From NCBI RefSeq assembly GCF_003334255.1, contig NZ_QOWU01000009.1: DNA of 64,000 bases, one strand, 5' to 3'. The translations under genes and the position numbers were made by a program. Each line of letters begins with the position of its first letter. Position 1 is the first letter of the stretch. Source of the stretch: Escherichia coli (lineage in GTDB: Bacteria > Pseudomonadota > Gammaproteobacteria > Enterobacterales > Enterobacteriaceae). The notes under the pieces were generated by a model. That model made no database searches. It worked only from the letters and a program-made list of their open reading frames with translations, and was not told the DNA's origin. Shown here in pieces: positions 33,395-35,859 of the stretch.

Positions 33395-33940
33395 ATGAGT
33401 GCCAATGAAAACAACCTGATTTGGATCGATCTTGAGATGACCGGTCTGGATCCCGAGCGCGATCGCATTATTGAGATTGCCACGCTGGTGACCGATGCCA
33501 ACCTGAATATTCTGGCAGAAGGGCCGACCATTGCAGTACACCAGTCTGATGAACAGCTGGCGCTGATGGATGACTGGAACGTGCGCACCCATACCGCCAG
33601 CGGGCTGGTAGAGCGCGTGAAAGCGAGCACGATGGGCGATCGGGAAGCTGAACTGGCAACGCTCGAATTTTTAAAACAGTGGGTGCCTGCGGGAAAATCG
33701 CCGATTTGCGGTAACAGCATCGGTCAGGACCGTCGTTTCCTGTTTAAATACATGCCGGAGCTGGAAGCCTACTTCCACTACCGTTATCTCGATGTCAGCA
33801 CCCTGAAAGAGCTGGCGCGCCGCTGGAAGCCGGAAATTCTGGATGGTTTTACCAAGCAGGGGACGCATCAGGCGATGGATGATATCCGTGAATCGGTGGC
33901 GGAGCTGGCTTACTACCGCGAGCATTTTATCAAGCTGTAA
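33395..33940 (+). CDS. orn: Oligoribonuclease (181 aa)
   Basis: The ORF-track entry is 229 aa. The ATG at 33395 gives [29 protein letters not shown] (DEDDh exonuclease motifs). Confidence 0.95.
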
Positions 33941-34065
33941 AATTTTTCCTGGTCACGTAAGCGCCGGAATCCACTTGCGGCGGCGTGATTTTGACGCTAA
34001 ATTGAACGTCTTGCTGATAATTTCAGCACTTGAGATAAAAACGCAAAAAAAACTTTTTTGGGGGG

Positions 34066-34093
34066 TTGCAGAGGGAAAGATTTCTCGTATAAT
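34066..34093 (+). promoter_or_regulatory. glyVXY promoter (sigma70, stringent-type)
   Basis: TTGCAG, a 16-nt spacer, then TATAAT. The GC-rich discriminator GCGCCTCCC follows, and an A/T-rich UP-like tract (AAAACGCAAAAAAAACTTTTTT) precedes. The first tRNA starts about 57 nt downstream. Confidence 0.65.
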
Positions 34094-34150
34094 GCGCCTC
34101 CCGTAACGACGCAGAAATGCGAAAATTACGAAAGCAAAATTAAGTAGTAC

Positions 34151-34226
<76 letters not shown>

Positions 34227-34262
34227 AAATTTGAAAAGTGCTGCAAAGCACAGACCACCCAA

Positions 34263-34338
<76 letters not shown>

Positions 34339-34374
34339 AAATTTGAAAAGTGCTGCAAAGCACAGACCACCCAA

Positions 34375-34450
<76 letters not shown>

Positions 34451-34468
34451 AATTCTTCTCTCAATAAA

Positions 34469-34718
34469 ATATCCACAGCGACGCGATGCGTTATTGCTGG
34501 TTTTTGTTGTCTCTGACAAACTCTTGTAAACAGAGTTATCCACAGCCTCAGGCTGTAATCTTAATTTCAAAGAAACTTCGCACGGTGAATAGTATTTTTT
34601 TAACCTATTGATAGATAAGTTAAAAATTAAGATTCCGTTTTGTCGAGTCGATCACTTGACGATTTTATTCGTCTTGAATTGCAATGCGTTTTTATTTTTA
34701 TTCACAAGCTGTGGATGA
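34469..34718. other. datA: datA core: DnaA-box cluster with a central IHF site (DnaA-ATP inactivation/titration locus)
   Basis: DnaA boxes: ATATCCACA at 34469-77, perfect TTATCCACA at 34536-44, TTATTCACA at 34698-706, and TCATCCACA on the minus strand at 34710-18. An IHF consensus TAACCTATTGATA sits at 34601-13. A further 8/9 box (CTATTCACA, minus strand) lies at 35091-99 inside queG. The position between glyVXY and queG matches datA as I recall it. Confidence 0.7.
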
Positions 34719-34719
34719 A

Positions 34720-35857
34720 TCAGGCGTCACGCGGTAACCCTTTTTCAATCACCCGAACCAGACGCTGTTTTTTCGGCAATTGCACTTCGACTATGCACGC
34801 ATTTCGTCTCTCTATTTGCTGCGCAATCGCCCACGCTATGTGCTCATCGAGAAGTGGGTGCTCACCTTTACGACTTTCCAGCGCTGTCAAAATCGTTTCA
34901 TCCCAAGGGGCATTGCCTAATGCTACGGCGATATTACGCAGCCAACGCAGGTGACCAATACGACGAATCGCCGATCCTTCCGTGACTTTTAAAAACTTCT
35001 CTTCGTTCCAGGCGAATAACTCAATGAGTTCCGGTGCGTGTAGCGGCTTACGCGGGCTGAAATCCTCTTCTGTGGTGAGTTGTGAATAGCGATTCCACGG
35101 GCAGATAAGCTGGCAGTCATCGCAACCGTAAATACGGTTTCCCATTAACGGTCGCAACTCTTCCGGGATCGCCCCTTCAAGTTCGATGGTGAGATAAGAG
35201 ATACAGCGGCGAGCATCGACGGTATATGGCTCGACGATGGCACCGGTCGGGCAAATCGTCATACAGGCCACGCATTTGCCGCATCCTTCCTCGACTGGTT
35301 GATCCACGGGCAGCGGAATATCGACCAGCAATTCGCCTAAAAAGAAGAACGAACCGGCCTCGCGATTGAGGATAAGTGAGTGCTTACCTGTCCAGCCGAG
35401 CCCAGCTTTTTCAGCTAACGGGCGCTCGAGAATAGGCGCAGAATCGACAAACGGTCTAAAATTCAGCGAAACACAATGTTGCTGAATCATCTCGCCCAGC
35501 TTTTTGAGTCGGTTGCGCAGAAGTTTGTGATAGTCACGGCCCAGCGCATAACGGCTAACATAGCCGAGTTTGGGGTTTTTCAGCGTGCTGGCAAATGCGG
35601 CGTTAGCAGGAAGGTAATTCATCCGCACGCTGATCACGCGCAGCGTACCGGGCAATAACTCATGAGGGCGAGCGCGCAGCATACCGTGACGTGCCATCCA
35701 GTCCATTTCGCCGTGGTATTGTTTGTCCAGCCATGCTTGCAGTTTGGGCTCGGACTCGCTGAGATCGGTATCGGTAATACCTACCTGCTGAAAGCCCAGT
35801 TCCAGCCCCCACTGTTTAATTTTTTGCGCTAACTGATTGAGATCGAGGGGCTCTGAC

Positions 35858-35859
<2 letters not shown>
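34720..35859 (-). CDS. queG: Epoxyqueuosine reductase (379 aa)
   Basis: The ORF-track entry is 415 aa. The ATG at 35857-35859 gives MSEPLDLNQLAQKIKQWGLELGF. It has two 4Fe-4S ferredoxin Cys motifs (CGKCVACMTICP, CDDCQLICP). Confidence 0.9.

Follow-up and report, generated by a model that had tools for sequence, protein, structure and literature searches.

Among the non-coding chromosomal elements of bacteria, few are known to regulate how active the replication initiator is, and datA of Escherichia coli is one of these: after initiation, it turns ATP-DnaA into ADP-DnaA, and it ties tRNA transcription to the cell cycle. In E. coli K-12, datA is located at 94.7 min, and the system that it serves, datA-dependent hydrolysis of DnaA-ATP (DDAH), has been described in a number of studies (Kitagawa 1996/1998, Nozaki 2009, Kasho & Katayama 2013, Kasho 2017; cited in passages of PMC5742627 and PMC10950094). 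The locus occupies the intergenic region downstream of glyV-X-Y, beside queG (PMC10950094, PMC10380432). DnaA boxes 2, 3, and 7 are essential for its function, box 4 is stimulatory, and a single IHF site lies between boxes 2 and 3 (PMC10950094, PMC5742627, PMC10380432). The minimal functional length is given in reviews as 183-262 bp, the 183-bp version containing boxes 7 and 2, the IHF site, and box 3 (PMC5742627). Here, we analyze a 64,000-nucleotide stretch of E. coli DNA (contig NZ_QOWU01000009.1 of assembly GCF_003334255.1; hereafter, the window), in which a cluster of DnaA boxes between glyY and queG had been predicted, from the letters of the sequence, to be datA.

The glyY-queG gap (34451-34719, 269 nt) is located directly downstream of glyV-X-Y and adjoins the 3' end of queG. 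It is 100% identical, base for base, to positions 4392659-4392927 of E. coli MG1655, and its flanking genes are the same as in MG1655. Published mutagenesis primers and the published IHF sequence of datA mapped to this gap, and not elsewhere. Since the gap is identical to the characterized locus, and since the published IHF-site and primer sequences map onto it, we conclude that it is almost certainly datA, the site on the E. coli chromosome at which DnaA is inactivated, in agreement with the published location. Nothing in the sequence of the gap speaks against this identity. The minimal functional datA lies wholly inside the gap, and compared with the K-12 locus, which has the same flanks, IHF site, and box 2, its functional region contains no differences. 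The window is matched by all 5426 complete E. coli genomes, and a 195-bp datA core is present, in single copy, in each of them. The identification is thus already known and the element is ordinary for E. coli; the finding itself brings no new biology, and its value is that of a positive control for a genome scan, in which an experimentally characterized element was recovered from raw sequence. The element had been described as invisible to gene callers, and the MG1655 and PGAP records show only yjeV or a 'hypothetical protein' here.

DnaA boxes were scored by the number of mismatches to the consensus TTATNCACA (Table 1). The four 9-mers that had been predicted in the gap, and the convergent pair formed by TTATTCACA and TGTGGATGA, were all recovered. 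Box 2 can be placed with precision, since TTATCCACA is exactly the 9-mer that primers subDnaAbox2_L/R flank and replace (PMC10950094, Table 2). Box 3 is in the same direction, 162 bp from box 2 in the window. The published order of elements is box 1, box 2, IHF site, box 3 (PMC4585315, PMC5742627), and all essential boxes point the same way; on these grounds, 34698-34706 was assigned as box 3 and the inverted box that follows it as box 4. Boxes 3 and 4 are 3 bp apart, and the end of box 4 is 1 nt short of the stop codon of queG. Box 4 stimulates the reaction in vitro and is not essential (PMC5742627, PMC10380432). Box 1 is reported to be dispensable for DnaA-ATP hydrolysis, and the glyV-X-Y terminator overlaps it (PMC10950094); many Enterobacterales carry a DnaA box 66-68 bp upstream of box 2.

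The essential low-affinity box 7 was missing from the list of predicted boxes. It has been published as a box with 2-3 mismatches that overlaps PyjeV, the putative yjeV promoter, the -35 element of which sits at the terminator (PMC10950094). We infer that box 7 is TTGTAAACA, because this is the sole plus-strand box with no more than two mismatches between the terminator and box 2, it has the required direction, and the span from its first base to the end of box 3 (34524-34706) is 183 bp, equal to the published minimal datA (PMC5742627). In MG1655, this 9-mer occupies 4392732-4392740. The numbers given here to boxes 3, 4, 5, and 7 are likewise derived from order, direction, and the 183-bp arithmetic. 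A fifth box, with eight of nine matching positions, had been predicted inside queG at 35091, which is ten bases off: the 9-mer at 35091, GATTCCACG, has four mismatches, and the actual match is at 35081-35089. This match, which in MG1655 occupies 4393289-4393297, probably corresponds to the non-essential box 5 of the historical ca. 1-kb datA fragment. The accompanying claim that datA extends into the 3' end of queG therefore stands for the non-essential box or boxes of this longer fragment, and fails for the minimal region, all of which is intergenic. Two weaker minus-strand boxes were also seen: CTATTCACC at 34584-34592 (two mismatches), which is located between box 2 and the IHF site and is kept in close relatives only, and TTATCCTCA at 35367-35375 (one mismatch), inside queG. 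Either could be the 'box 6' of the literature.

Table 1. Features of the glyV-X-Y-datA-queG region, in window coordinates. Numbers of boxes 3, 4, 5, and 7 are inferred.
Feature	Sequence	Position	Strand	Basis or remark
glyV, tRNA-Gly(GCC)	identical to glyX and glyY	34151-34226	+	ARAGORN, Rfam tRNA match, MG1655 annotation
glyX, tRNA-Gly(GCC)	identical to glyV and glyY	34263-34338	+	ARAGORN, Rfam tRNA match, MG1655 annotation
glyY, tRNA-Gly(GCC)	identical to glyV and glyX	34375-34450	+	ARAGORN, Rfam tRNA match, MG1655 annotation
DnaA box 1	ATATCCACA, 1 mismatch	34469-34477	+	sequence scan
glyV-X-Y intrinsic terminator/attenuator	hairpin CAGCGACGC-GAU-GCGUUAUUGCUG, then GUUUUUGUUG (U-tract)	34476-34509	+	fold and published deletion
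DnaA box 7 (putative)	TTGTAAACA, 2 mismatches	34524-34532	+	low affinity, essential per literature
DnaA box 2	TTATCCACA, perfect	34536-34544	+	high affinity, essential per literature
IHF site	TAACCTATTGATA (TATCAATAGGTTA on minus strand), perfect WATCAANNNNTTR, flanked by A/T tracts	34601-34613	-	consensus scan
Dam site, the sole one in the gap	GATC, within conserved block GATCACTTG	34650-34653		sequence scan
yjeV, annotated 17-codon ORF	MRFYFYSQAVDESGVTR	34684-34737	+	MG1655 b4670; PGAP 'hypothetical protein'
DnaA box 3	TTATTCACA, fits TTATNCACA	34698-34706	+	high affinity, essential per literature; same direction as box 2
DnaA box 4	TGTGGATGA (TCATCCACA on minus strand), 1 mismatch	34710-34718	-	number follows box order
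queG (epoxyqueuosine reductase)		34720-35859; stop codon 34720-34722	-	ORF, MG1655 annotation; flanking gene
DnaA box inside queG (probably box 5)	TGTGAATAG (CTATTCACA on minus strand), 1 mismatch	35081-35089	-	sequence scan

The full IHF consensus that had been predicted in the center of the gap was found as a perfect match, the only one in the gap, between boxes 2 and 3. Its minus strand, TATCAATAGGTTA, is the sequence printed as the IHF site of MG1655 datA in Supplementary Figure S11 of PMC4585315, and primer ChdatAsubIBS (PMC10950094, Table 2) changes the TTGATA of this site (34608-34613). Taken alone, the consensus is not significant (four matches in the window versus 2.6 expected), so that it is convincing only through its conserved position. 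For the Dam site, we note that GATC sites are marked for these loci in figure legends of a review (PMC10380432).

To assess conservation, queG loci were fetched from 80 species, and 19 Enterobacterales genera, from Escherichia to Morganella, Hafnia, Yersinia, Pantoea, and Edwardsiella, were aligned. The arrangement tRNA-Gly, gap, queG is kept in Enterobacterales. All 19 genera have an identical box 2. The eight specified positions of box 3 are invariant too, save for one alignment gap in Morganella, while its degenerate N position is T in nine genera, G in seven, and A in three. Variation in the IHF site is concentrated at the NNNN positions. Conservation is 84% for box 7 and 50% for box 4, compared with 41-47% for the spacers; box 4 is kept in Enterobacteriaceae and Erwiniaceae, and has disappeared from Yersiniaceae and Hafniaceae. 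Box 3 follows box 2 at a distance of 159-163 bp, mostly 161, and the IHF site is offset from box 2 by 64-66 bp wherever the strict IHF consensus is kept. Conserved sites at fixed spacing are the signature of protein-binding sites for which helical phasing matters; that spacing matters has also been reported for published mutants cited in PMC4585315. We conclude that the datA sites and their spacing are under strong purifying selection.

Other DnaA-box systems resemble this locus to a varying degree. In the left half of oriC, which contains box R1, an IHF site, R5M, and a low-affinity array, the IHF site also lies between boxes of the same direction, and ATP-DnaA oligomers are arranged head-to-tail on IHF-bent DNA (PMC5742627). 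Unlike oriC, the gap has a much longer box interval (162 bp between boxes 2 and 3) and lacks a 13-mer unwinding element: no repeated 13-mers were found in its sequence, and only one GATC is present in 34400-34800. The reported outcome at datA is ATP hydrolysis rather than unwinding, and HU does not substitute for IHF (PMC5742627). DARS1 and DARS2 are likewise non-coding chromosomal clusters of DnaA boxes, and DARS2 is also subject to timed IHF binding; however, they promote release of ADP and regenerate ATP-DnaA, and they possess a tight core of boxes I-III along with Fis sites (PMC5742627). A core trio of this kind is absent from the gap, where boxes 3 and 4 form the only close pair and no third box with two or fewer mismatches is found beside them. 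The clusters of Bacillus subtilis and Streptomyces coelicolor, too, are made up of DnaA boxes away from the origin, and they repress initiation at the wrong time (cited in passages of PMC5742627 and PMC10950094), but share no homology in sequence or position with datA, and those passages describe neither IHF dependence nor ATP hydrolysis for them.

The function proposed for the gap, in which re-initiation is limited by IHF-dependent hydrolysis of DnaA-bound ATP, corresponds to the DDAH mechanism as published. As this mechanism was established for the identical MG1655 sequence, occupancy and ATP hydrolysis at the locus analyzed here are taken from the literature. ATP-DnaA would bind boxes 7, 2, and 3, which share one direction, with help from box 4. 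After initiation, IHF would occupy its site between boxes 2 and 3 and bend the DNA sharply, bringing DnaA on the two arms into head-to-tail contact through Arg285; these contacts, together with sensor-2 Arg334, would trigger ATP hydrolysis. Both residues are needed for IHF-dependent catalytic hydrolysis of DnaA-ATP (PMC5742627). ADP-DnaA would then dissociate, so that datA turns over catalytically and the potential for re-initiation falls. Timing would be set by IHF occupancy, which is regulated by read-through from the promoter of glyV-X-Y that crosses datA (PMC10950094): the terminator of glyV-X-Y and DnaA bound to box 2 would attenuate read-through, and bound IHF would later block it. The activity of datA would further be raised by negative supercoiling, which stimulates the reaction (PMC5742627), and by early duplication of datA, which is near oriC.

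Two published observations qualify this picture. In a genome-wide map of IHF binding, datA was not substantially detected, which the authors attribute to dynamic binding (PMC8407004); absence of a steady-state IHF ChIP-seq peak would not refute datA. The second observation is that a strain without all extrinsic regulators of DnaA-ATP/ADP is nearly normal in its behavior (PMC11331064), and the physiological weight of datA is thus modest.

Could the motifs be chance matches in an AT-rich spacer? The gap has a GC content of 35% versus 51% for the window, and for this reason the null model consisted of 20000 dinucleotide-preserving shuffles of the gap itself. An IHF consensus arose in 806 of these shuffles (4%), which agrees with its lack of significance in the window as a whole. 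The boxes behaved differently: at least four boxes were found in just three of the 20000 shuffles, and at least two perfect boxes in four. The window contains two perfect TTATNCACA sites, and both are in the gap; nowhere else in the window do at least three boxes at one mismatch or less fall within 270 bp. Together with the invariance of sites and spacing across a bacterial order, the shuffles exclude a chance origin of the cluster.

Real sites could still serve another purpose. In the original datA model the cluster is mainly a passive sink that titrates DnaA, and not a site of catalytic hydrolysis. That model accounts for the exceptional DnaA binding capacity by which datA was first described and for the delay of initiation caused by extra copies (PMC5742627, PMC3937223), and the gap does contain two perfect boxes and two with one mismatch. 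However, four to six sites hold just a few DnaA molecules, a pure sink needs neither the strict spacing of box 2, IHF site, and box 3 nor their shared direction, both of which are seen across Enterobacterales, and reviews report catalytic hydrolysis that requires IHF, Arg285, and Arg334 (PMC5742627). Half-helical-turn changes in the interval between box 2 and the IHF site, or between the IHF site and box 3, are also reported to abolish the function of datA while leaving DnaA binding undiminished. We therefore regard titration as the main function as very improbable. Less probable still, to the point of being hardly credible, is a mainly transcriptional role, in which the sites are a roadblock or attenuator on glyV-X-Y read-through that shields queG from antisense transcription, or regulate yjeV, the replication effect being secondary. 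Part of this is correct, the sites being roadblocks in fact; the hairpin of the terminator and box 1 overlap, as do box 2 and another, small hairpin at 34542-34556 (z = -3.0). Yet in PMC10950094 transcription is viewed as regulating IHF occupancy and not as the output, deletion of datA alters the level of ATP-DnaA and the synchrony of initiation (PMC4585315, PMC5742627), the yjeV start codon is not conserved, and the gap contains no σ70 consensus promoter. Identity as the DnaA-inactivating site datA thus remains our preferred interpretation of the cluster.

Between the IHF site and box 3, the alignment of 19 genera revealed three blocks whose conservation clearly exceeds that of the spacers (41-47%), and for which no published assignment was found. 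These are GATCACTTG(ACG) at 34650-34658, which holds the GATC (75% conserved); (C)TTGAAT..CAA (TTGA..CAA) at 34674-34685 (68%); and a T-tract, TTTTTATTT, at 34689-34697, which adjoins box 3 (82%). One TTATT is inside the T-tract, and a second begins box 3 at 34698. The blocks could be low-affinity ATP-DnaA sites, an easily melted tract that is sensitive to supercoiling, or a site for the 'unknown factor' that is proposed to time the release of IHF. A scan of 33900-35200 for σ70 consensus elements revealed no promoter-like site, so that the conserved TTGACG and TTGAAT blocks cannot be called promoters on such evidence.

A related cluster was observed outside Enterobacterales. In all 16 Vibrionaceae loci analyzed (Vibrio, Photobacterium, Aliivibrio, and Enterovibrio), the spacer between tRNA-Gly and queG contains, ca. 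200-450 nt past the queG stop codon, the sequence (A/C)ACAGA(G/C)-TTATCCACA-N10-TGTGG(A/G)TAA, with a different left flank, AACCAAC, in Aliivibrio fischeri. This is an inverted box pair with a fixed 19-bp offset, the left half of which is similar to the block that boxes 7 and 2 form in Enterobacterales. Nine of the loci have an IHF-like TAAnnnnTTG(A/T)T at +120 to +125, which in six of them fits the strict consensus, and TGTG(T/A)TTAA is present at +214 to +233 in all 16. No such cluster was found in loci of Alteromonadales, Aeromonadales, or Shewanella. In the literature on datA in Vibrio, no paper on the cluster was found, only analogies to RctB sites. It is conceivable, though we consider it rather unlikely, that datA holds functional elements in addition to its IHF site and the boxes already published, and that, separately, Vibrionaceae carry a remodeled datA homologue. 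If the latter is true, the homologue (ACAGAS-TTATCCACA-N10-TGTGGRTAA) extends datA-type control to that family. The fixed sites and spacing in Enterobacterales, the three blocks, and the Vibrionaceae variant cluster in the same position are possibly of use to those who study datA.

The terminator of glyV-X-Y folds (34466-34512) with an energy of -9.6 kcal/mol, by itself no better than shuffles. Its placement at 34476-34509 fits the deletion made in an earlier study, in which primers delter_L and delteronly_R take out approximately 34468-34493, a region that holds the glyV-X-Y terminator and box 1 (PMC10950094). The deletion of 34460-34720 that had been suggested as an assay for over-initiation would also take this terminator, as well as one base from the stop codon of queG. 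A terminator scan revealed two weak hairpins, at 34542-34556 and 34640-34662, neither of which is conserved in other genera, and only the first of which beats shuffles. This first hairpin, ACAGCC-TCA-GGCTGT, is GC-rich and begins within the 3' end of box 2; its fold was stronger than that of 200 out of 200 shuffles.

The prediction that no open reading frame (ORF) explains the gap needs a correction, as the gap is not free of annotated ORFs. The annotated 17-codon yjeV begins there and runs across boxes 3 and 4 and the stop codon of queG. Its ATG, on the other hand, is shared by only three of the 19 aligned sequences, those of the window, Citrobacter, and Pluralibacter gergoviae, and is lost beyond close relatives, so that conservation there reflects the DnaA boxes. 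yjeV is thus probably not a conserved gene. An Rfam search of 33900-35000 (E ≤ 1) returned the three tRNAs and sub-threshold noise, with no match in the gap, and RNAalifold analysis of the 19-genus alignment, on both strands of 34530-34600 and 34630-34700, gave no consensus structure (energy 0). A conserved RNA element was thereby ruled out, and we conclude that the constraint acts on DNA. Among the sub-threshold Rfam matches was YrlA (Y RNA-like), at 34176-34315 across glyV-glyX, with 40 bits versus a gathering score of 69; it is most likely due to the tRNA-like module of this family.

Outside the functional region, comparison of the window with MG1655 showed one changed base in queG and, in the glyX-glyY spacer, one indel and two substitutions. 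The glyX-glyY spacer (34339-34374), which compared with MG1655 has one extra A and the two substitutions, is identical to the glyV-glyX spacer of the window, and this suggests gene conversion among the tandem tRNA repeats. In some E. coli genomes, only two tRNA-Gly copies are present at the glyVXY position. A single strain of the 5426, E. coli P276M (NZ_CP044293.1; locus 2428-2735, corresponding to window 34676-34735), diverges from position 34676 onward. Its box 3 is TTATTTTGG and its box 4 is TTTGGATGA, so that both consensus boxes are lost, while boxes 1, 7, and 2 and the IHF site are intact; the divergence may be due to recombination at the end of queG or to an assembly error.

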